From an uncultured Syntrophaceae bacterium (GTDB lineage Bacteria; Desulfobacterota; Syntrophia; Syntrophales; UBA2192): DNA of 64,000 bases. The translations under genes were made by a program, and so were the position numbers. The notes below the pieces were generated by a model. That model did no database searches and had not been told where the DNA came from. It worked only from the letters and a program-made list of their open reading frames with translations. This document shows, piece by piece, positions 5,392-43,468 of the stretch; positions within the stretch are counted from its first letter, which is position 1, and each line of letters starts with the position of its first letter. The stretch is taken from positions 51,797-115,796 of the forward strand of contig CAZJPV010000001.1 of NCBI GenBank assembly GCA_964547985.1. Direction: 5' to 3'.

Positions 5392-6581
5392 AGCTGGCAA
5401 CGAGGGTGACAAAGATCAAGCCGTCGCCGACGCTGGCGGTGACCATGCGCGCAAGGGCCCTGCAGGCCCAGGGGAAGGACATCATCGGGTTCGGAGCGGG
5501 GGAACCGGACTTCGACACACCCGAAAACATCAAGCAGGCGGCCATCAAGGCCATCCGGGAGGGATTCACCAAGTACACGCCCGTCGGCGGCATCGATGAG
5601 CTAAAGGACGCCATCATCACCAAGCTGAAGCGGGACAATGGCCTGACCTACAAGCGATCACAGATTGTTGTCTCCTGCGGTGCCAAGCACACGCTGTACA
5701 ATATCGCCCAGGCTCTCTTCGAGAAAGGCGACGAGGTGATCATCCCTTCGCCCTACTGGGTTTCTTACCCGGATATCGTCCTTCTGGCCGGCGCGAAGCC
5801 CGTTATCGTGGATACAACGGCATCGACAGGTTTCAAACTCACGCCGGAAAAGCTCGAGAAGGCCATCAGGAAGAAAACCAGGGCCGTTATCATCAACAGC
5901 CCCTCGAACCCGACGGGGGCCACCTACAGCCTGAAGGAGCTGGAGGGGCTCGCGGAAGTCATCCTTTCAAAGGGCATCCTGGTGATCTCCGATGACATTT
6001 ACGAGAGAATTCTCTACGACGGTCTTCAATTCCATAACATGGCCAATGTCAGCGAAGCGATGAAGGACCGGTGCATCGTCGTCAACGGCGTCTCCAAGGC
6101 CTATGCCATGACCGGCTGGAGAATCGGCTATGCGGCAGGTCCCGAAATTATCATCTCGGCCGTCACGGAAATGCAGAGCCAGAGCACCTCGAATGCGACC
6201 TCCATTTCCCAGAAGGCATCCGTGGAAGCCCTGGCCGGTGATCAGAAAACCGTTTCCGTGATGGCCGCGGAGTTCGAAAAGAGACGGAATTACATCGTGG
6301 GCCGGCTCAACGAGATCAAGGGCATGAGCTGTATGAAACCCCCCGGTGCTTTTTACGTCTTCCCCAGGGTATCCCGCCTTTACGGGACCGGATACGGGGG
6401 CAGGAAAATCGCCCATTCGGTTGATCTTTCGGAATTTCTCCTCGAGGAAGCGGGGGTCGCCGTGGTTCCGGGATCGGCCTTTGGGAATGACCATCACATT
6501 CGCCTTTCCTATGCCACTTCGATGAAGAATATCGAGGAGGGTGTCCGTCGGATCAAGGTGGTCGTAGGGAAATTGACGTAA
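5388..6581 (+). CDS. aspC: PLP-dependent class I aminotransferase (aspartate aminotransferase-like)
   Basis: GEPDFDTP, NSPSNPTG, SDDIY, SKAYAMTGWRIG, RLSYA. Confidence 0.9.
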   Translation: MKLATRVTKIKPSPTLAVTMRARALQAQGKDIIGFGAGEPDFDTPENIKQAAIKAIREGFTKYTPVGGIDELKDAIITKLKRDNGLTYKRSQIVVSCGAKHTLYNIAQALFEKGDEVIIPSPYWVSYPDIVLLAGAKPVIVDTTASTGFKLTPEKLEKAIRKKTRAVIINSPSNPTGATYSLKELEGLAEVILSKGILVISDDIYERILYDGLQFHNMANVSEAMKDRCIVVNGVSKAYAMTGWRIGYAAGPEIIISAVTEMQSQSTSNATSISQKASVEALAGDQKTVSVMAAEFEKRRNYIVGRLNEIKGMSCMKPPGAFYVFPRVSRLYGTGYGGRKIAHSVDLSEFLLEEAGVAVVPGSAFGNDHHIRLSYATSMKNIEEGVRRIKVVVGKLT

Positions 6582-15484: not shown

Positions 15485-15561
<77 letters not shown>

Positions 15562-17890: not shown

Positions 17891-18375
17891 CAGAACCGGA
17901 TTTTGTCACCGACCTTGACACCCTTTTTCCTGAACCAGCCCCGGTTCACCTCGAGGGCGTAGAGGACAGGAGAGCGTGAACTGCAGGTCTTCTCCGAGAG
18001 AGGGGTCAAGGGGAGGATCTCCGTGATCATTCCATCGGCAGAGATAAAGGCGATGTCAAGAGGAATGGTCGTATTCTTCATCCAGAAGGCAAGGTGCTGC
18101 GCTTTTTCATAGACGAAAAGCATCCCCCGGTTCCAGGGGAGACTTTCCCTGAACATGAGTCCCCGGGCCTGTACTTCCGGTGTGGAGACGACCTCGACCC
18201 AGAGAACGGCAGAACCGACGGAAATCCTTGCCAGGCGAGAATCGGCAGGCAGGGTCGCCTGAGTGCTGCCTGCCTCGGGTGTCGAAACCTGGCAGAAGAC
18301 CGCCGTCTGTAAAAATGAGAAGAAACACAAGAGGGCTATGGGCCACACATTCGACCGGTTCATAAAGCCTGTCAT
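17890..18375 (-). CDS. DUF192 family protein
   Basis: RGLMFR, GMLFVY, FWMKNTTIPLDIAF, ALEVNRGW; signal peptide. Confidence 0.92.
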   Translation of the reverse strand: MTGFMNRSNVWPIALLCFFSFLQTAVFCQVSTPEAGSTQATLPADSRLARISVGSAVLWVEVVSTPEVQARGLMFRESLPWNRGMLFVYEKAQHLAFWMKNTTIPLDIAFISADGMITEILPLTPLSEKTCSSRSPVLYALEVNRGWFRKKGVKVGDKIRF

Positions 18376-19934: not shown

Positions 19935-20015
19935 ATGTCATACAGCAAAGGCAGCCTCCTCGGCTTTTTTAGCTTTTTCGGCTTTTTTGGCGAGGTCTGC
20001 CTGATGCGCTCATGA
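19935..20015 (+). CDS. Phe-rich attenuator leader peptide MSYSKGSLLGFFSFFGFFGEVCLMRS (PheL-like)
   Basis: Translated by hand; 6 Phe codons in three pairs (19965-19988); aaaggga upstream; overlaps the alternative helices. Confidence 0.8.
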   Translation: MSYSKGSLLGFFSFFGFFGEVCLMRS

Positions 20016-20109
20016 CATGAACTTCTGAGAAATTGAGCCGCGGGTAGACCGGAAAAGGGACCGCGGCTTTTTTATAGTTCAAGGCCGTGGGTAATCCCGC
20101 GGCCTTTTT
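19949..20109 (+). promoter_or_regulatory. Ribosome-dependent transcription attenuator with two tandem terminators
   Basis: 1:2 = 19949-58/19992-20002; 2:3 = 19994-20012/20034-50; 3:4 terminator = 20036-43/20061-68 + T6; 5:6 terminator = 20081-91/20096-106 + T-run; 4:5 = 20061-70/20081-90. Confidence 0.8.
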
Positions 20110-20137
20110 AATTTCGTTCATTGAGGAGGGATGAAAG

Positions 20138-21343
20138 ATGAAGAGATATCTTCTTATGACGACCGTTATGGTTATGATGCTTGCGGCACTTTGCCTGCCG
20201 GCGCAGGCATCAGCCGCCGAGATGATCAAGGTCGGCGCCGCTATCAATCTCACGGGCCCCGCTTCGACCTGGGGGCAGTTTCACGCCAAAGGGCAGCAGG
20301 ATTATTTCCGCTACGTCAACGAAGTCAAGGGCGGTGTCGCGGGCAGGAAGATCGACATGGTTCTCGTCGACACGGCTTACAAGGTTTCGGAGGCTGTAAC
20401 AGCGGTCAGAAAATTTGCGACCCAGGACCATGTGGACATGATCGCCACCTGGGGAGCCGGTGAGGGACTCGCCGCAAAACCGATCGTCCAGAAATACAAG
20501 ATACCCACCATCAACTATTCGACGAGCTGGGAGATCCTGGAGGCGCCAATTGAATACATGTATCTCCCCTTCGGGAGCTATCGGCTCGACTGCTACGCTG
20601 TCCTGGAATACATCCGCGCAACCCACAAGGGAGCCGAAACGCCGAAGGTCGGGCTTCTCACCTACAATAACGCCTACGGCCGATCCATCCACAAGCCCAG
20701 CCAGGAATACGCAACGAAAATCGGGGTCAACATCGTCGCCATCGAGGAATTCCCACCCAAGACGGTGGACCTGACCACGGAGCTTTTGCGTCTGAAAAAA
20801 GCGGGGGCGGATTACGTCTTCATGCAGATGCTTCCGGCGACCATCGTCACGGCCTTTAAAAGTGCGGATCGCATGGGTTACAACCCCCAGTTCTTCGGGA
20901 CCTGGACCTCCACGGACCCCGACTTCTTCAAACTGGGGAAAGGACTGATCCGAAATCGATTGAAGATCCAGTTTTCCGGAGGGCTGCCGGCGGATAAATC
21001 GAAGGGGATGGCGCTCATGAGAGATCTGTGGAAGCGCTACAAGACGGTGGATCGTTTCGACGCGGCCTACTGGGAAGGAGTCGTCGTCGGCATGATCATG
21101 GAGAGAGCCTTTCAGCGTGCCCATGAGAAATACGGCAAGGTCAACCGAGAGACGATCAACATGGCCATGGAATCATTCAAGGACGAGGATTTCGGCGGCC
21201 TGATGCCGAAGCTTACCTACACGAAAACGGATCATGAGGGGTCCTTCGCGGGAAGGATCGTGCAGGTGAAAGAGGATGGCAATTTCATTCCCCGGACAAA
21301 CTTCTACAGTCCGGGCAGAGAAAAAATGAAACTTCTGAAATAG
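20138..21343 (+). CDS. ABC transporter substrate-binding protein (LivJ/K-type, HAAT family)
   Basis: Signal peptide; IKVG..NLTGP, YVNEVKGGVAGRKI, YNNAYGR; SD gaggaggg. Confidence 0.9.
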   Translation: MKRYLLMTTVMVMMLAALCLPAQASAAEMIKVGAAINLTGPASTWGQFHAKGQQDYFRYVNEVKGGVAGRKIDMVLVDTAYKVSEAVTAVRKFATQDHVDMIATWGAGEGLAAKPIVQKYKIPTINYSTSWEILEAPIEYMYLPFGSYRLDCYAVLEYIRATHKGAETPKVGLLTYNNAYGRSIHKPSQEYATKIGVNIVAIEEFPPKTVDLTTELLRLKKAGADYVFMQMLPATIVTAFKSADRMGYNPQFFGTWTSTDPDFFKLGKGLIRNRLKIQFSGGLPADKSKGMALMRDLWKRYKTVDRFDAAYWEGVVVGMIMERAFQRAHEKYGKVNRETINMAMESFKDEDFGGLMPKLTYTKTDHEGSFAGRIVQVKEDGNFIPRTNFYSPGREKMKLLK

Positions 21344-21359
21344 CGGGGCCCGAGTATTC

Positions 21360-22205
21360 ATGAAGGCATTTCGAGGTCAGCCCAGCATTTATGCGGAGAC
21401 GTTGAACCAGGAAAGAAAGGCCGAGCTTTTCGTGAAGGGTTTGACGCTTCGCTTCGGCGGGGTCGTGGCACTGAGTGCCATCGACCTGGACGTCCAAACA
21501 GGCGAACTCGTCTCTATCATCGGTCCCAACGGTGCGGGGAAGACCAGTCTCCTCAACTGCATCACGGGTTACTATCGGGGTCAGGAGGGGCAGATTCTTT
21601 TCAATGCCAAGGACATCACGAGTCTACCGACCCACAGTCTGATCGAACATGGCATCGGAAGGACTTTTCAGAACATCGAGCTTTTTCCCGGCATGACGGT
21701 TCTTTCCAATCTCCTGCTCGCCCGCCATGTCCACTGTCGCTATCCATTCGGACAGGCGGCCTTCTTCACGAAGAAAGTCAGACAGGAGGAGGTCCGGCAT
21801 CGGGAGGTCCTCGAGGAGATCATCGATTTTCTGGAGATTCAGCCGATTCGGCACAAACTGGTGGGCTCACTCCCCTACGGGCTCCGGAAGCGATTGGAGC
21901 TGGGCAGGGCCCTGGCACTGGAGCCCAAACTTCTCATTCTGGATGAGCCCTTTGCAGGGATGAACCTCGAAGAAAAGGAAGACATGGTCCGCTTCCTTGT
22001 CGAACTGAACGAAACCTGGCGTCAGACGATGATCCTGGTCGAACATGACATGTCGATCGTGATGAGCATATCGAAAAGAGTAACCGTACTTAATTTCGGT
22101 GTGAAAATCGCAGAGGGATCACCGGAGCATGTCCAGTCGCACCCGGAAGTCGTTCGGGCCTATCTCGGCGGAGACGGGGAAAGAGGTACAGGGGAGGGCG
22201 GCTGA
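21360..22205 (+). CDS. ABC transporter ATP-binding protein (LivG-like)
   Basis: GPNGAGKTS, RTFQNIELF, LPYG, LILDEP, VEHDM, VVRAYLG. Confidence 0.92.
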   Translation: MKAFRGQPSIYAETLNQERKAELFVKGLTLRFGGVVALSAIDLDVQTGELVSIIGPNGAGKTSLLNCITGYYRGQEGQILFNAKDITSLPTHSLIEHGIGRTFQNIELFPGMTVLSNLLLARHVHCRYPFGQAAFFTKKVRQEEVRHREVLEEIIDFLEIQPIRHKLVGSLPYGLRKRLELGRALALEPKLLILDEPFAGMNLEEKEDMVRFLVELNETWRQTMILVEHDMSIVMSISKRVTVLNFGVKIAEGSPEHVQSHPEVVRAYLGGDGERGTGEGG

Positions 22206-22209
22206 ATCG

Positions 22210-24156
22210 ATGGCAAAAGCTGCAGATCTGATCAGGGTGGCTCCCGATGTCCTTGTATCATTCGGGCGTCTCACCCTTCCGCAGGTCCTGGCCGATCAGG
22301 CCAGAAGGATGGACCCTTCACGGGTTGCCATCCGTGAGAAGGCCTACGGCATCTGGAAAACCTACAATTGGCAGACCTACCTGGACTATGTCCGTCAGAC
22401 GGCCCTCGGTCTCGCCTCCCTGGGACTTCGCAGGGGTGAAAACATCGGCATCGTCACAAACAATCACCCGGAGTGGCTTTTCAGCGAGGTCGGTGGGCAA
22501 TCGGCGGGGGCCGTCACCATGAATCTCTTCACCTCGTCGGCTCCCGAGGAACTGGCAACGGCTCTGAGCCGGATCAGGGCGACCATCGTCATTGTCCAGG
22601 ACCAGGAACAGGTGGACAAGCTCCTGGAGATGAAGGCCAGACTGGGCCATATCCGGCAGGTCATCTACGTCGACCCCACCGGGATGCGAAGATATGTAAA
22701 CGATCCATGGCTCATTTCCTACAGCGAGCTTCTGGACCGGGGCAGAAGACTCGACCTCGAGGAACCGGAACGATTTTCCAGGGAACTGGCCCGTGGGAAG
22801 GCAGGTGACGTAGCCCTCATGATCCAGACCTCCGGCACGACGGGCATCCCGAAGCTCGCCATGCTCAGTCACCGCAGCTTTACCGAGATGGCCCGTCAAT
22901 GGCTCGAGACGGCGCCCATCGGCATCGGGTCCAACTGGATCTCCATCACGCCACCCGCCTGGATCGTCGATCAGATGTGGGGCGTCGGGATAACCCTCGC
23001 CGGCGGCATGACCATGAATTTCCCCGAAACTCTGGAGACGGTGGATGAGGATTTCCGTGAAATCGGCCCCTCCGTGATCATCACCTCCTCCCGTTTCTGG
23101 GAGGATCTGGCTTCGAAAATCCGGGTCAAGATGGACGATGCCGGATGGGTCAAAAAAAAGATTTTCAAAATCGCTGAAAGGATCGGAATGAAGGTCGTGG
23201 ACCTCGAGTCCCGCAAAGAGTCCATCCCCGCCTGTCTCGGGTTTCTCAACGCCGTGGCCTCCCGGCTCGCCTTCCAACCCCTTTTGGACCGCGTGGGCTG
23301 CTCGCAGATGGTCAGCGCCTACACGGGGGGTCATCCGATCAGCCCTCAGGTGATCCGGTTCTTCCGGGCCATCGGTCTCAACCTCAAGCAGTGTTATGGC
23401 CTGACGGAATCGGGGGGCATCTTCCAGGTCCAGCCCGACGGGGAGTTCAAGCTCGAGACGGTTGGGAAACCCCTGCCGCGGACGGAGGTGCGGCTCTCCC
23501 CCGACCAGGAAGTCCTCGTCAAGAGCCATTCGGTCTTCGTCGGCTATTACAATGACTATCAGGCCACCGAAGCGGCATTCACGAACGGCTGGCTCCGGAC
23601 CGGTGATGCCGGATATCTGGACGAAGATGGTCATCTTCTGATCATCGGGAGAAAGGAAGACATTATCCGCAACAAGCAGGGAGCGGCATTTTCGCCCGAT
23701 TTTGTCGAGACGCGCCTGAAATTCAGCCCCTATATCAAGGAAGCGGTTGTTTTCGGCGAAAGCCGGCCCTATCTCACGGCGCTCGTCAATATCGACATGG
23801 GAAACGTGGGCAACTGGGCGGAAGACCGCATGATCCCCTACACGACCTACACGGACCTCACGCAGCAGATGGAGGTGGAAAAACTCATCCACGGCGAGGT
23901 TCAGGAGGTCAACGGGCAGCTTCCCGACCCCATGAAGATCCGCAAGTTCATTCTGCTCTACAAGCTCCTCGATGCCGATGACGAGGAATTGACGCGGACC
24001 GGAAAAGTGCGCAGGCGATTTGTTTACGGCCTCTATATCAAGCTGATCGAGGCCATGTACGAAAATAAGGATTCCCTGGAAGTCCGGGGGCAGGTCCGTT
24101 ATCGCGACGGACAGGTCGGCACACTGGAAACCAGGGTTCGGGTGATCACGACATAG
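22210..24156 (+). CDS. AMP-forming acyl-CoA synthetase (long-chain-type ANL family)
   Basis: TSGTTGIPK, YGLTE, GWLRTGDAG, ELTRTGKVRR. Confidence 0.9.
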   Translation: MAKAADLIRVAPDVLVSFGRLTLPQVLADQARRMDPSRVAIREKAYGIWKTYNWQTYLDYVRQTALGLASLGLRRGENIGIVTNNHPEWLFSEVGGQSAGAVTMNLFTSSAPEELATALSRIRATIVIVQDQEQVDKLLEMKARLGHIRQVIYVDPTGMRRYVNDPWLISYSELLDRGRRLDLEEPERFSRELARGKAGDVALMIQTSGTTGIPKLAMLSHRSFTEMARQWLETAPIGIGSNWISITPPAWIVDQMWGVGITLAGGMTMNFPETLETVDEDFREIGPSVIITSSRFWEDLASKIRVKMDDAGWVKKKIFKIAERIGMKVVDLESRKESIPACLGFLNAVASRLAFQPLLDRVGCSQMVSAYTGGHPISPQVIRFFRAIGLNLKQCYGLTESGGIFQVQPDGEFKLETVGKPLPRTEVRLSPDQEVLVKSHSVFVGYYNDYQATEAAFTNGWLRTGDAGYLDEDGHLLIIGRKEDIIRNKQGAAFSPDFVETRLKFSPYIKEAVVFGESRPYLTALVNIDMGNVGNWAEDRMIPYTTYTDLTQQMEVEKLIHGEVQEVNGQLPDPMKIRKFILLYKLLDADDEELTRTGKVRRRFVYGLYIKLIEAMYENKDSLEVRGQVRYRDGQVGTLETRVRVITT

Positions 24157-24171
24157 AAAGGTGTGACCGGT

Positions 24172-25050
24172 ATGGACTTCTTTATTCAACTTCTGGTGAA
24201 CGGCATCAGCATCGGTTTCCTCTACGGCCTCTCCGCCATGGGATTCGTGATGATCTTCAAGGCATCGAGTGTCCTCAATTTCGCGCACGGCGAGCTTTTG
24301 GCCCTAGGGGCCTTTTTGTTCCTTGCCCTCGTGACGTGGGCGGAGCTTCCCGTGGCGGCCGCCTTCATCTTGACCCTGGCCGGGACGTTCGTGTTCGGTT
24401 TTATTGTTGAACGCCTCTTTCTCCGCCCGCTCATCGGGGAACCCCTGATCGAGATCATCATGCTGACCGTGGGGCTTGCCGCCATGTTCAAAGGCGCACT
24501 TCTTCTCATCTGGGGCGGGAATCTTTATACCTATCCCGATCTATTACCCGAGTTTCTCGCATGGAGCTGGGGCGTCGTTCAGGTGCCACCGGTTTATGTC
24601 TCGGCTATTTTCATGGGCATCGTCTTCCTTTTGCTCTTCGGGCTCTTCTTCAAATACTCCTCCCAGGGGATCTACATGCGCTCCGTGGCGGATAACCAGC
24701 CGGCGGCTCTCTCCCTGGGTGTTCACGTGCGGCGGGTTTTCGCCCTGTCGTGGGCGATCGCGGCCCTGGTGGCGGGAATCAGCGGGATCATCCTCGGTCT
24801 CATCAACGGCATCAACGTCCACGAGTTGAGCTCCATCGGCCTCAAGGTCTTTCCCGTGGTCATTCTCGGCGGGCTCGACAGCATCAGCGGGGCCATCATC
24901 GGCGGTATTATCATCGGTCTGCTGGAGACCATGACGGGAGGCTATCTGTCACCGTCGCTGCGGGACGTGATTCCCTACATCGCTCTGGTCGCGATTCTGC
25001 TGGTCCGGCCCTATGGACTCTTCGGTCTCGTGGAAATCGAGCGGGTTTGA
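24172..25050 (+). CDS. ABC transporter permease (LivH-like)
   Basis: VLNFAHGE, GIYMRSVADN, VILGGLDS, VRPYGLFG. Confidence 0.92.
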   Translation: MDFFIQLLVNGISIGFLYGLSAMGFVMIFKASSVLNFAHGELLALGAFLFLALVTWAELPVAAAFILTLAGTFVFGFIVERLFLRPLIGEPLIEIIMLTVGLAAMFKGALLLIWGGNLYTYPDLLPEFLAWSWGVVQVPPVYVSAIFMGIVFLLLFGLFFKYSSQGIYMRSVADNQPAALSLGVHVRRVFALSWAIAALVAGISGIILGLINGINVHELSSIGLKVFPVVILGGLDSISGAIIGGIIIGLLETMTGGYLSPSLRDVIPYIALVAILLVRPYGLFGLVEIERV

Positions 25051-25064
25051 GGGGAGGCTGGAAA

Positions 25065-26138
25065 ATGCTTCGAAGATTCAGGTTCCATCCCTGCGGTAAC
25101 TACAGGGACCATTACGAAAAGGAGCTTACGATTTTCGAGACGGACTTCGGCCGCCTCTGGATGACCATCGGCCTCTGTGTGCTTTTCGGCCTCGTGCCCT
25201 TTCTGCTGGGTTCCTATCCGCTTTACATTATCAATATGATCGGTATAGCCGCCATCGCGGCTTTGGGACTCAACATCCTCGTGGGATACACAGGGCTCAT
25301 CTCCCTGGGACACGGGGCCTTCTTCGGCGTGGGCGCTTATGCCGCAGCCATTCTCGCGACGGAATGGAACTTTCCGATCCTTCTCGCACTTCCCGCCGCG
25401 GGCCTTATAACGGCGCTGGTGGGCATGATCTTCGGCCTGCCCTCCGTGCGGTTGAAAGGGCTTTATCTCACTATTGCCACCCTGGCCGGCCAGTTCATTA
25501 TTGAATATATCCTCCTCCACTGGGAGGGTCTCACCAAGGGCACCATGGGCATCATCCTCCCCGAGGCAGGGATCTTCGGCTTAACCGTAACCGGTGACAG
25601 GGGTTATTTCTTCCTGATTTATCTCTGCCTCGTCCTGATGACGTGGCTTGCCGTAAATCTCGTGCGTACGAAGTTCGGAAGGGCTTTCATCGCCATCCGG
25701 GACAACGACCGTGCCGCAGAGGGGATGGGCATCCCCGTCTTCCGTTACAAGCTTCTTTCCTTCGGGATCAGCTCGTTCTACGCGGGGCTCGCAGGCGCCC
25801 TTTTTGCCTATTACATGATCAGCATTACCACGGAACCATTCAATCTCATGCTTTCCGTCGAATACATCGCCATGATTATTATCGGGGGCCTCGGCAGCAT
25901 CACGGGGACCATTTTCGGGGCCATCTTCATCACCGGGCTGAACGAAGCCCTGCGGTGGTACACAGACTGGCTCATCAACGTGGGGGGTATTACCGGTGTG
26001 GAGCTCACGGTTGCTCCCCTGAGGGAGTTTGCCTTCGGTCTGGCCATAGTACTTTTCATTCTTTTCGAGCCCAAGGGCTTGGCGGAGCTCTGGCGAATCA
26101 TCCGCTCCAGTTTCAGACTCTGGCCCTTTTCCTATTGA
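25065..26138 (+). CDS. ABC transporter permease (LivM-like)
   Basis: GYTGLISLGHGAF, RLKGLYLTIATL, GRAFIAIRDN, IIGGLGS; SD ggggagg before ATG 25065. Confidence 0.92.
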   Translation: MLRRFRFHPCGNYRDHYEKELTIFETDFGRLWMTIGLCVLFGLVPFLLGSYPLYIINMIGIAAIAALGLNILVGYTGLISLGHGAFFGVGAYAAAILATEWNFPILLALPAAGLITALVGMIFGLPSVRLKGLYLTIATLAGQFIIEYILLHWEGLTKGTMGIILPEAGIFGLTVTGDRGYFFLIYLCLVLMTWLAVNLVRTKFGRAFIAIRDNDRAAEGMGIPVFRYKLLSFGISSFYAGLAGALFAYYMISITTEPFNLMLSVEYIAMIIIGGLGSITGTIFGAIFITGLNEALRWYTDWLINVGGITGVELTVAPLREFAFGLAIVLFILFEPKGLAELWRIIRSSFRLWPFSY

Positions 26139-26147
26139 GGTGCCTTC

Positions 26148-26951
26148 GTGAACGACAAGATCCTATTACAGATCAACAACATCGGCGTCGTATATTCTGA
26201 CGTGATTCAAGTCCTGAAAGGCGTTTCGCTATCCGTGCCGGAAAACCGGATCATCTCGCTTTTGGGGAGCAACGGCGCCGGAAAGTCCACCACCCTCAAG
26301 GCCATTTCGGGCCTCCTCAAGACTGAAAACGGCAAGGTCACGGAGGGCTCCATTCTTTACGACGGGACCGAGATTCACAACCTTCCGCCCGAGACAATCA
26401 CCCGCCAGGGGATCATCCAGGTCCTGGAGGGTCGACAGCCTTTTAAATACCTCACCATCGAAGAGAATCTCCGTGTGGGGACGGCCACTCGCTTCGGGAA
26501 ACCTTACAAGGAAGACCTGGATCTGGTGTATGCCTATTTCCCGGTCCTGGTGAAACGGAGAAAGACCCTTGCGGGTTACTGCAGCGGCGGGGAGCTTCAG
26601 ATGCTCGTCATCGGCCGAGCTCTCATGGCCCACCCAAAGCTTCTGCTCCTCGATGAACCTTCGCTGGGGCTCGCACCGATGGTGGTTCAGGAAATCTTCA
26701 GGATCATCCGGCGCATTAACGAAGAGCAGGGGACGACCATTGTCCTTGTCGAGCAAAACGCCAACATGGCCCTTCAGATCGCCCATCGCGGCTATGTGAT
26801 GGAAAACGGCAAGATCGTCATGGAGGGCGATGCTGCCGAGTTGCGAGAAAACCCGGATGTCAAGGAATTCTATCTCGGCATGGGCGCGACGGGGATAGCG
26901 AAATCTTACCAGGATGTGAAGGCCTATAAGCGAAGAAAGAGGTGGCTCTAA
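26148..26951 (+). CDS. ABC transporter ATP-binding protein (LivF-like)
   Basis: GSNGAGKST, SGGELQML, LLDEPSLGLAP, EQNA, VKEFYLG. Confidence 0.92.
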   Translation: MNDKILLQINNIGVVYSDVIQVLKGVSLSVPENRIISLLGSNGAGKSTTLKAISGLLKTENGKVTEGSILYDGTEIHNLPPETITRQGIIQVLEGRQPFKYLTIEENLRVGTATRFGKPYKEDLDLVYAYFPVLVKRRKTLAGYCSGGELQMLVIGRALMAHPKLLLLDEPSLGLAPMVVQEIFRIIRRINEEQGTTIVLVEQNANMALQIAHRGYVMENGKIVMEGDAAELRENPDVKEFYLGMGATGIAKSYQDVKAYKRRKRWL

Positions 26952-26953
26952 AA

Positions 26954-27062
26954 GGTCTATTTGGTCTGTTTAGTCTCTTCAGTCTGTCTGGTCACTAGGT
27001 CCGGACAGGATAGTCATCTTACGACAAAATAGACCAGAAAGACGAAAAAGACCAGATAGACC
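26954..27062. repeat. 9-nt periodic repeat array forming a 40-bp imperfect inverted repeat
   Basis: Left arm 26954-26993 (ggtctattt/ggtctgttt/agtctcttc/agtctgtct) and right arm 27023-27062; 30/40 matches counted by hand. Confidence 0.75.
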
Positions 27063-27088
27063 CATCAGGCGTGAACAGGGAGGTGGAA

Positions 27089-28348
27089 ATGAAAATAGGG
27101 GGGACCCGGCGAGTCTTTTACGACGAGAAAGAGACGAGGTCGATCGCGAGGAGGAAACGTGACCAGAATACAAAACTGGCCCGGATGATCCGGAGGGCCT
27201 ATGAAAAATCGAAGGGCTACCGTAAGATGCTCGATGATCACGGGATTGACCCATCAAAGATCCGGTCGGTAAAGGATCTGGAGAGGCTACCGGTCATTTC
27301 CCGACCAAAACTCATCGAGATGGAAATGGGAGATCCCCCTTACGGAGGATTCGAAAACCCGACAGCGGCCGTCGATCGGGTTTTTATCTCGCCCGGTCCC
27401 GTCTACGAGCCCCACCTCCCGGAAGACGACCCCCTGTGGGCACGGGCTTACTGGGCCGCGGGCTTCAGGCCGGGTGACATCGTCCTCAACGCCTTTTCTT
27501 ACCACCTCGTCGCTGCGGGTCTCACCTTCCACGGCGGACTTCGCCGGGTCGGCGCCACCGTCATTCCCTCCGGAACGACAAGCAGTGACATTCAGGTTCA
27601 GCTCCTGCGCGATCTCAGGATCACAGGCTTTACGGGGACACCCAGTTTTCTTGCGGCCCTCATCAAACGCGCCGAGGAACTCGGTTTTGATTTCCGGAAA
27701 GACTTCACGCTCCGGCGTTCGAGCTTCGCAGCCGAGCCGTTGGAAGCCTCGCTCCGCAGACGTTTCGAACAGGACTACAGCATCGACACCTATCAAATGT
27801 ATGGCGCCACAGAGGTGGGCGATGTGGCTTACGAGTGTCCGGAAAAAAAGGGGTGGCACATTTGTGAAGAGGTCATCGTCGAGATCGTCGATCCGGAGAC
27901 GGGAAAAGCCGTTTCGAACAATGAGCTGGGAGAGGTTGTTGTCACGAGACCGAACGACATATTCTATCTCTTCCGTTTTGCCACCGGTGACCTCTCATCC
28001 ATCATCGAAGAACCCTGTCCCTGCGGAAGGACCTCCCATCGGCTGAACGGCATCACCGGCAGGGTAGGGGACGCCGTCAAGGTCCGGGGGATGTTCGTCA
28101 CGCCAAGCCAGCTCAAGAAAATCGGGGAGCTACTGCCGGGGATTAAATTCCAGTTAGGGGTTGATCGTAGGGCGCACAGGGACATCCTGAAGGTTCATCT
28201 GGAAAGAACGGGAGACGAGGCGGCACTGCGGTCACGGTTCGAAAAGGCCTTCCGGAATCTTTGCACTGTGAGCATTGATGAATGTGAATGGGTCGAAACC
28301 GGGACGCTGGATGGCGATCTCATAAAGGATCGCCGTCACTGGAAATAG
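27089..28348 (+). CDS. Phenylacetate-CoA ligase (PaaK)-like adenylate-forming protein with divergent P-loop
   Basis: PaaK-type N-terminus (IRSVKDLERLP), GFRPGD, YGATEVG, EIVDPETG, RFATGD, GRVGDAVKVRGMFV; FISPGPVYEP in place of SSGTTG. Confidence 0.8.
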   Translation: MKIGGTRRVFYDEKETRSIARRKRDQNTKLARMIRRAYEKSKGYRKMLDDHGIDPSKIRSVKDLERLPVISRPKLIEMEMGDPPYGGFENPTAAVDRVFISPGPVYEPHLPEDDPLWARAYWAAGFRPGDIVLNAFSYHLVAAGLTFHGGLRRVGATVIPSGTTSSDIQVQLLRDLRITGFTGTPSFLAALIKRAEELGFDFRKDFTLRRSSFAAEPLEASLRRRFEQDYSIDTYQMYGATEVGDVAYECPEKKGWHICEEVIVEIVDPETGKAVSNNELGEVVVTRPNDIFYLFRFATGDLSSIIEEPCPCGRTSHRLNGITGRVGDAVKVRGMFVTPSQLKKIGELLPGIKFQLGVDRRAHRDILKVHLERTGDEAALRSRFEKAFRNLCTVSIDECEWVETGTLDGDLIKDRRHWK

Positions 28349-37508: not shown

Positions 37509-38174
37509 CTAAAAATTAACGAGGGGGGGGTTGTGGAGAGGATGGGGATCGGTCTGCTTGTGACCTTTCACGCGGACCTTCCGCCCGACGACTTCCAGCT
37601 TTTCTTCCGCGTAGAGCTGAATGGCCTTGGGATAGATCCGATGTTCCTCTTTCAGGATTCTCTGTGCCAGAATCTCATCGGTGTCCTGATCATAGACCGG
37701 CACAATGGCCTGGATGATGATGGGCCCCGTGTCGACGCCTTCATCGGCAAAATGAACCGTACAGCCGGAGAACTTGACCCCGTAATCGAACGCCTTTTTC
37801 TGTGCATGCATGCCCGGGAAAGACGGAAGAATGGCCGGGTGAATGTTCATGATCCTCATGGGAAAGGCGTTAAGAAATAAAGGCGAGAGGATCCGCATGA
37901 AACCGGCCATGATGACAAGTTCGACGCCGCTCACATTGAGCACCTCGATCATCTTGCGGTCGAAACTCTCCCGGGTATTGAAATCCCGGTGCTCCATAAC
38001 GGTATAGGGAATGCCGTGTTTTCTTGCCCTGACCAGGGCATAGGCCTCGGGATTGTTGCTGATCATCATCCGGATTTCCGCATCGAGAAGGCCTTTTTCG
38101 ATGTGATCGATAATGGATTGAAGATTCGACCCGCTTCCCGATACGAGGACACCCAGTCTCACCCTGCGCTTCAT
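37509..38174 (-). CDS. purN: Phosphoribosylglycinamide formyltransferase
   Basis: SGSGSNLQ, AGFMRIL, NIHP, GCTVHF, DTGPII. Confidence 0.97.
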   Translation of the reverse strand: MKRRVRLGVLVSGSGSNLQSIIDHIEKGLLDAEIRMMISNNPEAYALVRARKHGIPYTVMEHRDFNTRESFDRKMIEVLNVSGVELVIMAGFMRILSPLFLNAFPMRIMNIHPAILPSFPGMHAQKKAFDYGVKFSGCTVHFADEGVDTGPIIIQAIVPVYDQDTDEILAQRILKEEHRIYPKAIQLYAEEKLEVVGRKVRVKGHKQTDPHPLHNPPLVNF

Positions 38175-38178
38175 AGGC

Positions 38179-39222
38179 TCACACAATACATATAGCCGGC
38201 TTTGACGGATCCCTTTTGTCAATGGTGCCGATGAGGTAGGCCTCTTCGCCAAGGGCGACGAGCCTTTCCATGACCTCCGGACATTCTTTGTCGGTAACGA
38301 TGATCATGAGGCCGATGCCCATGTTGAACACCCTGAGCATCTCCATCTCCTCAATGTCCCCTCCTGCCTGAAGGATCTTGAAGATGGGAAGTACCGGCCA
38401 GCTCCCCCGTCGAATAACGGCCTGGCATCGTTCGGGTAGAATCCGCGGCACATTGTCTAAAAAACCGCCTCCCGTGATATGGATGAGACCTTTGATATTG
38501 AAGTTCTTGACCAGATTGAGGATGGCCTTGGCGTAAATTTTGGTGGGCTTCAGAAGTTCCACATCGACGGTTTCATCCAGCCCTTTGGTACGGTCGTGGA
38601 TGCCGAGCTTCATCCGTTCAAACAAAACCTTCCTTGCCAGAGAGAAACCATTGCTGTGGATGCCCGTCGAAGCGAGGCCGATGATCCTGTCGCCGATACC
38701 GATCTTTGAGCCGTCCACGAGTCTGTCGGCATCGACAATCCCCACGCAGAAACCCACAAGTTCATAGTCCCCAGGGGCAAAAAATCCGGGCATCTCGGCG
38801 GTCTCCCCGCCGATCAGGGCACAACCCGCATCCCGGCACCCCTTGACGATTCCCTCGATGATCTGAACGCCCGTTTCGACACTGATCTTGTTTGTCGAGA
38901 TGTAATCGAGAAAAAACAGGGGTTCGGCACCCTGCACCAGCACGTCGTTGGCGGACATGGCGACAAGGTCAATCCCAATGGTATTGAAGCGGTTCGCCAT
39001 CTGGGCGATCTTGAGTTTGGTCCCGACACCATCTGTCGAGGAGACAAGGATGGGATCCTTGTATCGGGTTTTTTCCAGGTGAAAAAGGCCGCCGAATCCG
39101 CCAAGGCCGCCGATGACCTCTTTTCTAAATGTGGTCCGGATAAGCGGCTTGATGGCGTCGATAAACTCGTTTGCCCTGTCAATGTCCACACCGGCATCTT
39201 TGTATGACGTCTTTTCCGACAT
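38179..39222 (-). CDS. purM: Phosphoribosylformylglycinamidine cyclo-ligase (AIR synthase)
   Basis: YKDAGVD, TDGVGTK, GGETAEMPG, HSNGFSL, HITGGG, FNMGIG. Confidence 0.97.
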   Translation of the reverse strand: MSEKTSYKDAGVDIDRANEFIDAIKPLIRTTFRKEVIGGLGGFGGLFHLEKTRYKDPILVSSTDGVGTKLKIAQMANRFNTIGIDLVAMSANDVLVQGAEPLFFLDYISTNKISVETGVQIIEGIVKGCRDAGCALIGGETAEMPGFFAPGDYELVGFCVGIVDADRLVDGSKIGIGDRIIGLASTGIHSNGFSLARKVLFERMKLGIHDRTKGLDETVDVELLKPTKIYAKAILNLVKNFNIKGLIHITGGGFLDNVPRILPERCQAVIRRGSWPVLPIFKILQAGGDIEEMEMLRVFNMGIGLMIIVTDKECPEVMERLVALGEEAYLIGTIDKRDPSKPAICIV

Positions 39223-39519
39223 AGGCACTCCGGCTTTATCCGCCCCGAATGATGAACCCCAAGCCAGGTCCCTCAGGTCAGCGGAATCTTGTGGTTCAGG
39301 CTTCGGGGACAGGGATCCCCCTCAGGGTCTTTGATTTGGCTGGGGGTGAGATCCGGGAAGAAGAGATAAGGCCACTTGAAATTTCTTCCAGGCATTTTAG
39401 TGAGTTCGTAACTTAAAACGACTTAAAAGTCAATTCTTTCCTTGAGAATCATCAGGATTTTTGCTAAGGGATGGCCGATCTTTATGATTGAAATCATTTA
39501 TTATTTAACCTGATTCCGG

Positions 39520-42015
39520 GTGCAGGCACCGTCCATGATGGAAGACCCGAGCAGACTGATCGAAAAAATGGAAGGACCGCTTCGATTTTTCTCCCGTGAG
39601 GACTTCAGAAGTCTTCACCTGCTGAAGGATTTCGAAGCGTCCATGGAAAGGCTATTGTCAGCCCTGAGAAAGGCCTGCCGCACCGGCAGGATATCCTCTT
39701 CCGTGAGCAACAGCAACCGAATTGAAGAGATTGTCCGGGACTTGGAACGACATTTCGAGGGGTTCGATACCCTGCCGGTCGATGATAAGAAATCAAGAAT
39801 CCAAGGCGCCCTGGCGCTCGTGGACAGCCTGAAAACCCTTATTCCGTCGCAAGGAGAAAGTTCCGCAGGGGATGCGGAAACCCATGACCATGGACAGGCA
39901 GCGTTTCATCGATCAGCCTTCGAGAAGTTGTCGCTTCCCGTCCAATACGTGAAGGGGGTCGGTCCGAAGCTAAGCGCCCTTCTGGGGAAAAAGGGTCTTA
40001 TAACCGTCGAGGACATGATCTATTTTCTCCCCCGCAAGTATGAGGACCGACGTTTCGTGAGAAGCATATCGGCGACCCGGCCGGGTATGAAAGAGACGAT
40101 TGTTGGGGAGGTCCAGTCGGCGCAGATCCGGCTGTACCGTAAGAAGAGGGTGTTCGAGGTGCAGGTGGCCGACGGGACGGGGGCACTGACCGCCAAATGG
40201 TTTCACGGGAATTACCCTTTTCTGAAAAAGATCTTTGAAAAAGGCAAACGGATCATCTTCACAGGCGAGATCAAGGGATTCCTCTTTGAGAAGGAGCTGA
40301 TCCATCCGGACTTCGAAGTGCTCGAAGAAGACGATGATCATCTGCTCCACTTCAAGAGGATTGTGCCGATCTACTCTGAAACAGAGGGTCTGGGGCAGAA
40401 GAATCTCCGGCGGATCATGAAGCGTGTTGTGGATGATTTCACCGGCTATGTCCTGAGTCCTCTGCCGGAGGACATTCTGCAACGACAGGGTCTGCAGGAC
40501 ATGCATCGATCCATCCGGGCGGTACACTTCCCCGAGGGTGACAGTGATGTCGAAGCGCTCAACCGCATGAACTCTGAAGCGCACCGGCGGATGATCTTCG
40601 ATGAGTTTTTCTTTTTCGAACTGGGCATGGCCCTACGAAAAAAGGGGACCCTCCTTCACGTGGGTATCCCGATGCGACCAAAGGGAGAGGGCCTGAAGAG
40701 ATTTCTGCAGAGGCTTCCCTTTGAGCTCACAGCCGCGCAACGGCGTGTCATCGGTGAGATTACGGGGGATATGGAAAAAAGCATCCCGATGCACAGGCTG
40801 CTCCAGGGGGATGTGGGATGCGGGAAGACCGTCGTCTCCATGGCGGCAATGATCGTCGCCTGCGAAAGCGGCTATCAGGCCGCCATCATGGCGCCCACAG
40901 AAATCCTGGCCGAACAGCACCACCGGAACATCACGAATTGGGCGGCCGCCCAGGGGTTCAATACGGTGATCCTGACGGGAAGCCTGAAGGCCTCCGATCG
41001 GAAAAAAGCCTTTAAGGGGATCGAGCGGGGCGAGGTAGACATTATCGTGGGTACCCACGCCCTGATACAGGAGGAAGTGAAATTCCACAGGCTCGGGCTT
41101 GTCATCGTGGATGAACAACATCGGTTCGGCGTGATACAGCGGGCCCTTCTGCGGGAAAAGGGCGTTCATCCCCATATCCTCGTGATGACAGCCACGCCCA
41201 TACCCCGGACGCTTGCCATGACGGTCTATGGCGATCTCGACGTCTCCGTAATCGACGAAATGCCACCGGGGAAAAAACCGGTCAAAACCAGGATCTTTTA
41301 TGAAAAAGAACGGCAACGGGTCTATGACATCATCCGCAAGGAGATGGTGAAGGGGAATCAGGTTTTTGTCGTCTATCCGCTCGTGGAGGAGTCGGAAAAT
41401 GTCGATCTCCGGGACGCCACAAAAATGGCGGAGCACCTTCAGAAAGACGTTTACCCCGAATTCAAGGTCGGCCTTATCCACGGCCGCATGAAAGGTCGGG
41501 AAAAAGACAGGATTATGGAACGGTTCATCGGGAAAGAAATTCATCTGCTCGTCTCGACCACCGTGATCGAGGTCGGTATCGACATCCCCCAGGCTTCGCT
41601 CATGGTGATCGAGCATGCCGAACGTTTCGGGCTCGCCCAGCTCCACCAGCTCAGGGGAAGGGTAGGGCGCGGGGACATTCCCTCTTACTGTGTCCTGATA
41701 TCCGGCCTTCCCGTGTCGGACCTCTCAACGAGGCGGCTCCGTGTCATGGAAGAAACCACGGACGGGTTCAGGATCGCGGAGGAAGATCTGACCATCCGGG
41801 GGCCCGGGGAGTTTCTCGGCACGCGTCAGTCGGGACTGCCGGATTTCAGGGTTGCCAATATCCTTCGTGACGGCAGAATATTAAACGAAGCGCGGCAGGA
41901 GGCTTTCCGGCTCGTCGAGAGAGACGCCTTTCTGGAGAAGCCCGAACACGGGCTGCTGAAGGAGGTGCTCCTTCGTCGATGGGAGGGCCGGCTGGATCTT
42001 GCCTGGACAGGCTGA
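39520..42015 (+). CDS. recG: ATP-dependent DNA helicase RecG (long N-terminus)
   Basis: VKGVGP, QGDVGCGKT, DEQHRFG, TATPIPRT, QLRGRVGRG, RGPGEFLGTRQSG. Start uncertain (39520 or 39535). Confidence 0.96.
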   Translation: MQAPSMMEDPSRLIEKMEGPLRFFSREDFRSLHLLKDFEASMERLLSALRKACRTGRISSSVSNSNRIEEIVRDLERHFEGFDTLPVDDKKSRIQGALALVDSLKTLIPSQGESSAGDAETHDHGQAAFHRSAFEKLSLPVQYVKGVGPKLSALLGKKGLITVEDMIYFLPRKYEDRRFVRSISATRPGMKETIVGEVQSAQIRLYRKKRVFEVQVADGTGALTAKWFHGNYPFLKKIFEKGKRIIFTGEIKGFLFEKELIHPDFEVLEEDDDHLLHFKRIVPIYSETEGLGQKNLRRIMKRVVDDFTGYVLSPLPEDILQRQGLQDMHRSIRAVHFPEGDSDVEALNRMNSEAHRRMIFDEFFFFELGMALRKKGTLLHVGIPMRPKGEGLKRFLQRLPFELTAAQRRVIGEITGDMEKSIPMHRLLQGDVGCGKTVVSMAAMIVACESGYQAAIMAPTEILAEQHHRNITNWAAAQGFNTVILTGSLKASDRKKAFKGIERGEVDIIVGTHALIQEEVKFHRLGLVIVDEQHRFGVIQRALLREKGVHPHILVMTATPIPRTLAMTVYGDLDVSVIDEMPPGKKPVKTRIFYEKERQRVYDIIRKEMVKGNQVFVVYPLVEESENVDLRDATKMAEHLQKDVYPEFKVGLIHGRMKGREKDRIMERFIGKEIHLLVSTTVIEVGIDIPQASLMVIEHAERFGLAQLHQLRGRVGRGDIPSYCVLISGLPVSDLSTRRLRVMEETTDGFRIAEEDLTIRGPGEFLGTRQSGLPDFRVANILRDGRILNEARQEAFRLVERDAFLEKPEHGLLKEVLLRRWEGRLDLAWTG

Positions 42016-42148
42016 GGTTGCCGAAATACTTTTTGACAAGTTGCTTAAATTATTGTAAAAACTCATTTTTATTTTTAGCCCGAGCAAAGCCCCGGCGTGA
42101 AGTCGCCGTTTCGAGGGCTTTCATAAAAACAGCGTGGGGTCAAGAGCG

Positions 42149-43468
42149 ATGAAAAACATATATGTCGGCCTAATCGGTTTTGGAACCATCGGGACAGGTG
42201 TCGCTAGGCTCCTTCAACAGAACGGCCACCTGATCGAGAAGCGCCTCGGCGCGCGAATCGTTCTAAAAAAGATTGCGGACATCGACACGACAACCCCGAG
42301 GCCCGTGACGGTCGAAAAGGGCATTCTCATCAGGGATGCGAACAAGATCCTTGAAGACCCCGAAATATCCGTTCTTATTGAACTCATCGGCGGTTATGAG
42401 CCCGCACGATCCTTCGTTCTGAAGGCCATGCGGAACAAGAAGCACGTGATCACGGCCAACAAGGCGCTCCTGGCCACTCATGGAAACGAAATCTTCCGCG
42501 TGGCCGAGGAGGAGGGGGTGAATATCGGTTTCGAGGCCAGTGTGGGAGGAACGATCCCCATCATTAAGACCATCAAGGAAAGCCTGGTAGGTAACCGCAT
42601 CCGATCCGTCTTCGGGATTATGAACGGCACGACCAACTATATCCTGAGCAAAATGACCGATGAAAGGAAGAACTTCAAAACGGTCCTCAAGGAGGCGCAG
42701 GCCCTGGGGTTCGCCGAGGCCGACCCTACCTTCGACATCGAGGGCATCGACACAGCCCACAAACTGACGATCCTTCTGTCGCTTTCCTACGGGAAGAAGG
42801 TCAACCTGGAAGACATCTATCGTGAGGGCATCACGGAGATCAGCCAGATGGACATCGAGTACGCCAAGGAGCTGGGCTACCGGATCAAGCTCTTGGCCAT
42901 CGCCATTCAGCGGGAGGACCGGGTTGAGGCCAGGATTCATCCGACGATGATTCCCTTCGGCCACCTGCTCGCCAGTGTCAATGGAAATTTCAACGCCTTT
43001 CACGTAATCGGCGACGCCTCCGATTCCGTATTCCTTTATGGGCAGGGCTCCGGCATGATGCCGACGGCCAGTGCGGTCGTCAGTGACCTGGTGGATATAT
43101 CCAGGGATATGCTCAAGAAGATCTCGAGACGCGTTCCCCCCCGATCCATCCAGGAGCGGGCCATCGAAAACATCCAACTAATGCCCATGGAGGACATCAG
43201 CACCAGTTACTATTTCCGCTTTTCCGCCGTCGACCGTCCAGGGGTCCTCTCGAAGGTCTCGGGGATCCTGGGCCAGCACAACATCAGCATTGCGGCCGTC
43301 ATACAGAAAGGACGGACAGCGGACAGCGTCGGTGCCGTACCCGTCGTCATGACAACGCACCGGTCGATGGAACGGGATGTCCAGGCGGCCCTGAGAGAAA
43401 TCGATCGACTGGACGTGGTCCGACGGAAGACCGTCCGGATTCGAGTCGAGGATGAAAATCTGCAATGA
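42149..43468 (+). CDS. hom: Homoserine dehydrogenase with C-terminal ACT domain
   Basis: GFGTIG, TANK, EASVGG, NGTTNY, GFAEADP, DRPGVLSKV; TTGACA at 42033 upstream. Confidence 0.96.
   Translation: MKNIYVGLIGFGTIGTGVARLLQQNGHLIEKRLGARIVLKKIADIDTTTPRPVTVEKGILIRDANKILEDPEISVLIELIGGYEPARSFVLKAMRNKKHVITANKALLATHGNEIFRVAEEEGVNIGFEASVGGTIPIIKTIKESLVGNRIRSVFGIMNGTTNYILSKMTDERKNFKTVLKEAQALGFAEADPTFDIEGIDTAHKLTILLSLSYGKKVNLEDIYREGITEISQMDIEYAKELGYRIKLLAIAIQREDRVEARIHPTMIPFGHLLASVNGNFNAFHVIGDASDSVFLYGQGSGMMPTASAVVSDLVDISRDMLKKISRRVPPRSIQERAIENIQLMPMEDISTSYYFRFSAVDRPGVLSKVSGILGQHNISIAAVIQKGRTADSVGAVPVVMTTHRSMERDVQAALREIDRLDVVRRKTVRIRVEDENLQ

Follow-up and report, generated by a model that had tools for sequence, protein, structure and literature searches.

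The enterobacterial pheA, pheST and trp leaders are leader-peptide transcription attenuators of biosynthetic or tRNA-synthetase genes, the Liv transport system of Escherichia coli is under Lrp/leucine control, and FadR (YsiA) of Bacillus is a TetR-type repressor that responds to long-chain acyl-coenzyme A (CoA). In the part of PMC3223731 available to us, COG0683 binding proteins are described as often binding aromatic, fatty or dicarboxylic acids and not Leu/Ile/Val, and the accessible passages of PMC4162585 describe how aryl acids feed aromatic amino acid synthesis in Methanococcus maripaludis via indolepyruvate/arylpyruvate:ferredoxin oxidoreductase (IOR). Here we analyse an operon at positions 19935-28348 of a 64,000-nucleotide (nt) stretch of DNA, hereafter the window, on contig C1 of an uncultured Syntrophaceae bacterium, the genome of which (2.6 Mb, 117 contigs) is rated 100% complete with 2.3% contamination; the public labels of its close relatives are Syntrophales, Syntrophaceae or Smithella metagenome-assembled genomes. 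A Phe leader with its terminator and putative antiterminator is followed there by seven plus-strand genes in the order binding protein, LivG, acyl-CoA synthetase, LivH, LivM, LivF and PaaK-like protein (Pfam, NCBIfam). Judged from the sequences, the operon is preceded by a real, conserved and Phe-specific leader-peptide attenuator. With a rough probability of 45% we read the operon as a Phe-starvation-induced system for the uptake and activation of an external acid convertible to Phe, with phenylacetate as the likeliest candidate.

The leader region (Table 1) folds at -87.3 kcal/mol (z = -5.86), and none of 200 shuffled sequences folded as well. A homologous Phe-rich leader was recovered in 25 of the 30 relatives' loci returned, two of the five misses having too little upstream sequence, and among the public loci it is present in 24 of the 25 with a binding protein at least 68% identical to that of the window and, in a weak form, in one of 21 more distant loci (L080). 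In all, 40 distinct leader regions were gathered, 39 of which are in the alignment. The leader open reading frame (ORF) keeps its start and stop codons among the relatives, with TTT/TTC variation, and GGCAG is visible at the place of segment 1 in most rows. The helix of terminator 1 is 94.9% paired over the 39 sequences and shows changes on both sides in 5 of its 11 pairs, values that none of 500 shuffles reached. The putative antiterminator, in which GGTCTGCC (segment 2) pairs with GGG(C/T)AGACC of the terminator 5' arm, is paired in 98.6% of the alignment cells, with one-sided changes only; no covariation was detected in this helix among the 39 aligned leaders, both strands being near-invariant, so that its support comes from conservation and not from covariation. 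The first-pass annotation had proposed a Phe-attenuated operon, and this proposal holds: the six-Phe-codon leader and its terminator are kept throughout the Syntrophales, the terminator showing compensatory changes. With Phe-tRNA in short supply, the ribosome would stall at the Phe codons, leaving GGTCTGCC to pair with the terminator 5' arm and permitting read-through, and a ribosome that reaches the stop codon would cover segment 2 and let the terminator form.

The second, terminator-like hairpin is seen in most relatives, with a pairing of 86.5% that is weakly above that of shuffles. We also considered a dual disarming, in which the 3' arm of terminator 1 would pair with the 5' arm of hairpin 2, and rejected it as unsupported: the pairing amounts to 84.6%, and 146 of 500 shuffles equal it. 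The promoter-like site upstream of the leader was left unlisted by the consensus scan because that scan admits only second hexamers ending in T. A tRNA gene at 15485-15558 (plus strand) is the sole Rfam match in the window at the gathering threshold, so that no riboswitch or T-box is found in the window by Rfam.

The response to Phe alone can be gauged from a second attenuator of the same genome, on contig C10 at about 17960-18170 (locus L175, about 160-370), which is likewise built on the GGTCTGCC core with two hairpins. The leader there, MMDRQRSSNSYWWFGFYYYGGQVCPSARRTLT, contains Phe, Trp and Tyr codons together and is kept in 28 of 30 relatives' loci. Downstream of it is the eight-gene aroF-aroB-pheA-aroD-aroE-aroA-aroK-aroC operon, the products of which are 3-deoxy-D-arabino-heptulosonate 7-phosphate synthase, AroB, prephenate dehydratase, AroD, AroE, AroA, a shikimate-kinase-like protein and chorismate synthase; six of the eight genes exceed a curated cut-off, aroE clears a single model and the kinase gene none. 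As the sister aro leader mixes the three aromatic codons, the transporter operon would respond to Phe alone. When the genome was scanned by regular expression for attenuators with the GGTCTGCC core, seven matches were returned, and only these two are intergenic with a leader ORF. An Ile-rich leader ORF, MIRNIISIIRPIIIIVIQDTSG, lies on contig C8 at 54038-54106 (locus L173, 139-207), directly 5' of a citramalate synthase gene (TIGR00977, 703 bits, cut-off 450), and is probably an Ile attenuator to judge by its composition and position. The aro and Ile leaders together point to a lineage that employs leader attenuation for amino-acid supply generally, and the direction of the Phe attenuator likewise argues for supply; the idea that the operon is catabolic for Phe was rejected on this ground.

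Two further points raised by the first-pass annotation concern the rest of the genome. The de novo Phe pathway is complete, pheA lying in the attenuated aro operon, and the organism is not a Phe auxotroph. Paralogous operons with Trp-, Tyr- or Leu-rich leaders did not turn up: no binding-protein paralogue in the genome exceeds 23% identity, and hence there is no paralogous operon of the same type (type 1) with such a leader. A scan for short ORFs rich in a single residue gave 126 candidates, mostly noise, and missed the mixed Phe/Trp/Tyr leader. On contig C25 (1980-2075) a short ORF opens MTTTTTPTTTEK, with 8 Thr in 10 residues; the ORF downstream does not resemble a thr gene.

The genes of the operon, flanked by a divergent phosphoglucomutase gene on one side and by convergent peroxiredoxin and rubrerythrin genes on the other, are listed in Table 1. 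All the elements that the first-pass annotation named were recovered, each no more than a few bases from the place where it had been put. Its HAAT/Liv-type ATP-binding cassette (ABC) transporter has the complete component set by Pfam (a Peripla_BP_6 protein, two BPD_transp_2 permeases, and the LivG and LivF ATPases), and the acyl-CoA synthetase said to be embedded among the transporter genes is found, with its AMP-binding and AMP-binding_C_3 domains, between livG and livH. The best NCBIfam matches are LivG, LivF, LivH and LivM, and none of the transporter parts reaches the equivalog cut-off curated for its E. coli Liv counterpart; the family is therefore clear, whereas the substrate label is not. 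In the synthetase the P-loop is intact (TSGTTGIPK in the alignment), solved relatives are none better than E 1e-25, and the gene directly follows livG in all complete type-1 loci. Such a tie to livG in every complete related locus, together with the intact P-loop, argues that the solute is a carboxylic acid trapped as its CoA ester. The embedded synthetase looks competent from its motifs and would be the activating enzyme of the pathway, rather than the PaaK-like protein.

Table 1. Features of the Phe-attenuated operon and candidate downstream genes (window coordinates)
Feature	Position	Strand	Remarks
Promoter-like TTGACA, 17-nt spacer, TATGAA	19871-19899	+	Read off the sequence, upstream of the leader
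Leader ORF, 26 codons, MSYSKGSLLGFFSFFGFFGEVCLMRS	19935-20015	+	Six Phe codons: 11, 12, 14, 15, 17, 18
Segment 1, GGCAG	19950-19954	+	Just 5' of the Phe codons; pairs with 19996-20001 in the minimum free energy fold
Segment 2, GGTCTGCC, codons Glu-Val-Cys, putative antiterminator 5' strand	19994-20001	+	Invariant in 39/39 aligned leaders
Terminator 1	20037-20073	+	Stem 20037-20067, T-run 20068-20073; 5' arm holds segment 3
Segment 3, GGGTAGACC	20042-20050	+	Within the 5' arm of terminator 1
Second hairpin with T-run, terminator-like	20081-20111	+	11 pairs, 8 of them G-C
Peripla_BP_6 periplasmic binding protein, HAAT family, 401 aa	20138-21343	+	Pfam E 7.1e-56
LivG-type ABC ATPase	21360-22205	+	ABC_tran with BCA_ABC_TP_C tail; LivG model 253 bits, cut-off 362
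Acyl-CoA synthetase (ANL family, FadD11-like), between livG and livH	22210-24156	+	AMP-binding and AMP-binding_C_3; likely start 22210, five bases past the livG stop; longest ORF from 22129
LivH-type permease	24163-25050	+	BPD_transp_2
LivM-type permease	25062-26138	+	BPD_transp_2; probable start, also from relatives; longest ORF from 24750
LivF-type ABC ATPase	26148-26951	+	ABC_tran; LivF model 220 bits, cut-off 441
PaaK-fold protein without ATP P-loop	27089-28348	+	Public-record start gives 419 aa; longer ORF start 27071
iorA-iorB, indolepyruvate/arylpyruvate:ferredoxin oxidoreductase	iorA 45859-47649, iorB 47586-48230	+	Candidate downstream enzyme, outside the operon
Class I/II aminotransferase	5388-6581	+	Aminotran_1_2 E 2e-83; possible unspecific last step, unlinked to the operon

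Orthologues of the binding protein, 68-97% identical, occur in 37 of 41 Syntrophales genomes, and its AlphaFold2 model reaches a predicted local distance difference test score (pLDDT) of 90.9. The structural neighbours of this model hold valine or fatty acids, both discussed below, or aromatic acids, the last being Rhodopseudomonas palustris binders at TM-scores of 0.71-0.75 and 17-20% identity; the ligand is thus not settled by structure. In E. coli LivJ, what we take to be the contacts for the alpha-amino and alpha-carboxylate groups are Ser79, Thr102, Tyr202 and Glu226, a numbering that agrees with the E. coli LivJ sequence. In an alignment that is uncertain at about 20% identity, they fall on Ala107, Thr129, Leu232 and Trp256 of the window protein. 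The second HAAT binding protein of the genome (contig C37) keeps Ser, Thr, Tyr and Asp at the same places. These residues point to a substrate that is probably an acid and not an amino acid. Three putative ligand loops separate the loci with a leader (ATWGAGEG, NYSTSWE and SY(R/K)xDC) from those without one (ATWDAGSG, NYSTYQG and SY(I/V)xDS). As the loops differ cleanly with the presence of the leader, the comparison suggests that binding specificity shifted together with regulation in the leader-bearing loci. At 8920-9936 of contig C37 (locus L120), a LivJ-like binding-protein gene is interrupted close to its 5' end by an in-frame TAG, which may reflect a shorter gene, a pseudogene or an error in the assembly.

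The last gene of the operon had been taken for a PaaK-like protein, which is right as regards fold and homology and fails on the P-loop, the A10 lysine and the PaaK score. Its AlphaFold2 model (pLDDT 89.2) has the PaaK fold with the N-terminal microdomain (TM-scores of 0.89 to 4R1L_A and 0.87 to 2Y4O_A), and the sequence aligns with PaaK1, PaaK2 and BT_0428 at E of about 1e-44 and 27-31% identity, keeping the A5 (YGATE), A7 (TGD) and A8 (GRxxDxxKxxG) motifs. The scores are 184.1 bits for TIGR02155 (cut-off 646.3) and 217.2 for the haloarchaeal PaaK model (cut-off 700). At the place of the PaaK P-loop, SSGTTGKP, stands SPGPVYEP; in PaaK1, according to the accessible part of PMC8388817, Ser94, Thr96 and Thr97 bind the ATP phosphates. 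This loss is found in all 22 operon-linked orthologues, including a clade with the gene upstream of the binding protein (L070-L079), while all six unlinked paralogues keep the canonical P-loop and the EGKA(K/R)RV lysine segment. The A10 lysine is not conserved in the operon-linked proteins, which have a shorter segment with a Lys nearby in some only. With both P-loop and A10 lysine missing, the protein is not a standard adenylating ligase and is probably no phenylacetate-CoA ligase either, so that it should not be counted as one. Its model fits the thioester-state structures (6HE0, 2Y4O) better than the ATP-state one (2Y27), which may serve as a lead only.

A decayed pseudogene was considered and rejected for the PaaK-like gene. 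In a family alignment of 130 rows (126 representatives at 50% identity and four own proteins), the loop is S/T-PGP in 84, of another kind in 37, mostly variants of the short loop, and canonical in 9, three of which are our own controls; the family has invariant motifs of its own, SPGP and a His, and motifs conserved family-wide are not those of a decaying gene. In a sample of the phylum, 101 of 301 genomes have a match to the protein at E 1e-60 or better. A HAAT gene lies within 1.5 kb in 25 of the 29 best non-self loci, usually with livF directly upstream, and 13 of the 20 larger stretches fetched hold a second operon type (type 2) with the order LivG, synthetase, LivH, LivM, binding protein, LivF, PaaK-like. 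As the two paralogous types agree, livG-synthetase and livF-PaaK-like are conserved gene pairs. No amino-acid-rich leader was found at the type-2 operons of other genomes. Five of them (L154, L156, L158, L162 and L165) share the element TTTCACATTTTACGTAAACTGGCA about 150-250 nt 5' of livG, just before a TTGACA, which is perhaps a transcription-factor site. In public records, members of the PaaK-like family go by 'AMP-binding protein' or 'phenylacetate-CoA ligase', and the names in the ESM Atlas are generic only. A search for fused long forms found none at E 1e-40, which is weak evidence; one protein of 710 aa (P0178) has the P-loop-less PaaK-like domain fused to Abhydrolase_3, of the esterase/lipase type, and is a single case. 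The PaaK-like protein might act as a partner with an accessory, product-sensing or thioester-state-only role. Two more canonical PaaK paralogues of the genome, on contigs C27 (848-2847) and C67 (7952-9909), are each followed by a small protein that reads as ACT-domain-like.

For the steps after activation, the first-pass annotation had pointed to an iorAB pair without an adjacent paaK and to a class I aminotransferase at 5388. Both are in place: the two neighbours of iorAB encode tetratricopeptide repeat proteins, iorA scores 704.4 bits (TIGR03336, cut-off 650.9) and iorB 240.2 (NF005322, cut-off 237), and the aminotransferase is a class I/II gene with aspartate transaminase as its best NCBIfam match (488 bits, below the cut-off of 617) and four weaker paralogues in the genome. 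An iorA over the cut-off occurs in 33 of the 37 relatives with the binding protein, against none of the four without it (G024, G031, G032 and G038); these 41 relatives are not independent of one another, and G032 is fragmented and ambiguous. In three loci of other lineages (L062, L063 and L080) a unit of FadD-like ligase, iorA and iorB lies divergently beside the operon, the iorA of L062 scoring 799 bits (cut-off 651), and in L080 this unit stands alongside a homologous leader with four Phe codons. These iorA sequences are 40-42% identical to that of the window and 37-39% to that of a second iorAB pair on contig C14, so close that orthology is not separable.

Taken together, the importer would bring in the acid and the embedded synthetase would trap it in the form of a CoA thioester; IorAB, encoded twice in the genome, would reductively carboxylate arylacetyl-CoA to phenylpyruvate, and an aminotransferase would finish the synthesis of Phe. 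Such an aryl-acid scavenging route had been proposed in the first-pass annotation. It keeps the support of the Phe attenuator, the P-loop-bearing synthetase, the missing LivJ contacts and the ior links, and loses the PaaK-like protein as a ligase; at the probability given above, it is the most economical reading. Several observations weigh against it. Besides the missing P-loop and A10 lysine of the PaaK-like protein and the complete de novo Phe pathway, some 17.5 kb separate iorAB from the operon, and a spacing of about 11-28 kb on the same contig recurs in many relatives; shared synteny and ancestry weaken the co-occurrence count, which may mirror one chromosome block. The C14 iorAB pair belongs to a cluster at 37827-44601 (locus L174) that combines a canonical-P-loop PaaK paralogue with iorA, iorB and a DctPQM-type tripartite ATP-independent periplasmic (TRAP) transporter, upstream of which no leader peptide was found; by its gene content it would be a more conventional aryl-acid salvage unit that could act by itself. 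The other opposing points, namely the nearest structures of the binding protein, the Phe annotation of E. coli Liv, the family of the synthetase and the control of the operon in other orders, also carry the alternatives and are taken up with them.

The alternative that survives best, although we hold it to be unlikely, is that the transporter is a Phe-specific importer of L-phenylalanine itself, with the attenuator matching uptake to need and both ANL proteins accessory or unrelated. In its favour, no HAAT component is lacking, the annotation of E. coli LivJ/K-HMGF as a branched-chain amino acid/phenylalanine transporter covers Phe itself, and a Phe-only leader is what would be expected of a Phe importer. 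The nearest solved relative of the binding protein, Thermus 3LKB (E 2.7e-33; TM-score 0.83), holds valine although, like the window protein, it has no equivalent of LivJ Glu226, so that the missing contact is compatible with amino-acid binding and is moderate evidence at best. However, import of Phe would leave the strictly conserved embedded synthetase and the livF-linked PaaK-like protein unexplained; three LivJ amino-acid contacts are gone here, though kept in the C37 binding protein; and the orthologous operons stand beside FadR boxes or ligase-iorAB units, which fits acids over amino acids.

The control of these orthologous operons bears on a second alternative, which we consider less probable again: that the operon serves generic hydrophobic or fatty-acid uptake and activation, the Phe leader being an indirect link and not a matter of Phe supply. 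A six-gene core with binding proteins 58-68% identical to that of the window occurs in Desulfarculaceae, Desulfobacterales, SAR324 and other Thermodesulfobacteriota. The weak L080 version aside, the Phe leader is missing from the orthologous operons of other orders (61-68% identical binding proteins). In four loci (L061, L071, L073 and L081) a FadR-like TetR regulator (186.5 bits, cut-off 200) and etfA lie divergent to the operon, with etfB in three of them, so that etfBA adjoins the operon in three to four loci. Palindromes in five (L060, L061, L067, L071 and L083) fit the Bacillus-type FadR box, WTGAATGAMTANTCATTCAN. Regulator and boxes point to fatty acyl-CoA control in those orders. The best family match of the synthetase is FadD11, a fatty-acid ligase, at 261 bits, far below the cut-off of 950; the second structural neighbour of the binding protein, 4N03 (TM-score 0.82), binds a fatty acid; and fatty and dicarboxylic acids are among the ligands of R. 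palustris COG0683 proteins according to the available part of PMC3223731. A six-Phe-codon attenuator, however, has no known logic for fatty-acid uptake, and the organism's sister attenuator serves the aromatic pathway, its Ile leader citramalate synthase. No FadR box was found in the organism's own genome, nor a FadR-like regulator beside the operon, and the putative ligand loops differ systematically between leader loci and FadR-type loci. Genes of TRAP transporters lie near the operon in five loci. Locus L038 (1266-16875) holds two tandem operons of binding protein, LivG, synthetase, LivH, LivM and LivF on one contig, and two matches also occur on contig C9 of genome G018.

Least probable is a substrate that is some other phenyl compound (3-phenylpropionate, cinnamate, phenyllactate, an omega-phenylalkanoate or a Phe conjugate) on which the PaaK-like protein does a second, non-adenylating step: two ANL-fold proteins are encoded of which one alone looks adenylation-capable, the invariant SPGP and His argue for an activity of the PaaK-like family's own, and one member is fused to an esterase-type alpha/beta-hydrolase, but there is no known route to Phe that bypasses phenylacetyl-CoA or phenylpyruvate, the operon holds no further pathway genes, and the fusion is a single case.

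Returning to phenylacetate, a more elaborate version can be drawn, which as a whole is doubtful. In both paralogous operon types, each ATPase gene has an ANL-fold gene of its own behind it, the synthetase gene after livG and the PaaK-like gene after livF, and transporter, synthetase and P-loop-less PaaK might form one import-and-trap machine, in which the P-loop-less protein would carry out a thioester-state reaction or sense the acyl-CoA product and so gate transport. In Syntrophales, this widespread module might have been captured by a Phe-specific copy of the aromatic attenuator, with its pocket remodelled, so that Phe starvation would induce the high-affinity uptake of phenylacetate released by fermenters nearby, to be reductively carboxylated by IorAB.

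No paper on the operon type, the leader or the P-loop-less family was found in the literature searched, part of PubMed Central lying outside its reach, so that this is not proof of their being unpublished. Three things look new: the control of a transporter/ligase operon by a Phe-only attenuator, the sister attenuator of the aro operon, and a P-loop-less PaaK-fold family tied to such transporters. The homologous attenuator pair, conserved across the order, separates 'Phe only' from 'any aromatic amino acid', and current annotation gives the name phenylacetate-CoA ligase to a PaaK-fold family that is large, uncharacterised and devoid of the ATP loop. This widespread ligase-embedding type of transporter is probably mislabelled when, as is usual, it is called a branched-chain amino acid transporter. 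Syntrophs live near the thermodynamic limit, so that sparing the cost of aromatic amino acids by way of a neighbour's waste would be real cross-feeding, and, if true, it would come with a built-in regulatory read-out; should Phe or a fatty acid be the ligand, what would remain is a regulatory finding and a corrected annotation.

Compared with known systems, the operon has the same five component types as E. coli LivJ/LivK-LivHMGF, a HAAT system for Leu/Ile/Val/Phe. It differs in a binding protein that is only 19-20% identical, in the synthetase between livG and livH, in the PaaK-fold gene after livF, and in its control by a Phe leader in place of Lrp/leucine. With the enterobacterial leaders it shares a short ORF in which the regulatory codons cluster, a terminator and a predicted antiterminator that would exclude each other, and a U-tract; unlike them, it controls a transporter/ligase operon, belongs to Thermodesulfobacteriota, has a second hairpin and shares its GGTCTGCC core with an aro attenuator. 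The operons of other orders, with their FadR-like regulator, etfBA and WTGAATGAMTANTCATTCAN boxes, resemble the FadR regulon of Bacillus, whereas the operon of the window has neither box nor adjacent regulator and carries the Phe leader instead. The R. palustris COG0683 proteins (CouP/RPA1789, RPA3723/3724) are likewise encoded near CoA ligases, although in the systems as described in the available part of PMC3223731 the context is catabolic, with no synthetase at the same position and no leader. As in the route described in the accessible passages of PMC4162585 for M. maripaludis, the order of steps proposed here is aryl acid, aryl-acetyl-CoA, arylpyruvate by IOR and amino acid; M. maripaludis is an archaeon and the present host is bacterial, and a Phe-attenuated importer with an embedded ligase is not met in those passages. 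The PaaK-like protein has lost the Ser94, Thr96 and Thr97 phosphate contacts that the available part of PMC8388817 gives for PaaK1, and yet shares the fold of PaaK2 and BT_0428 at TM-scores of 0.87-0.89, with the A5, A7 and A8 motifs kept.

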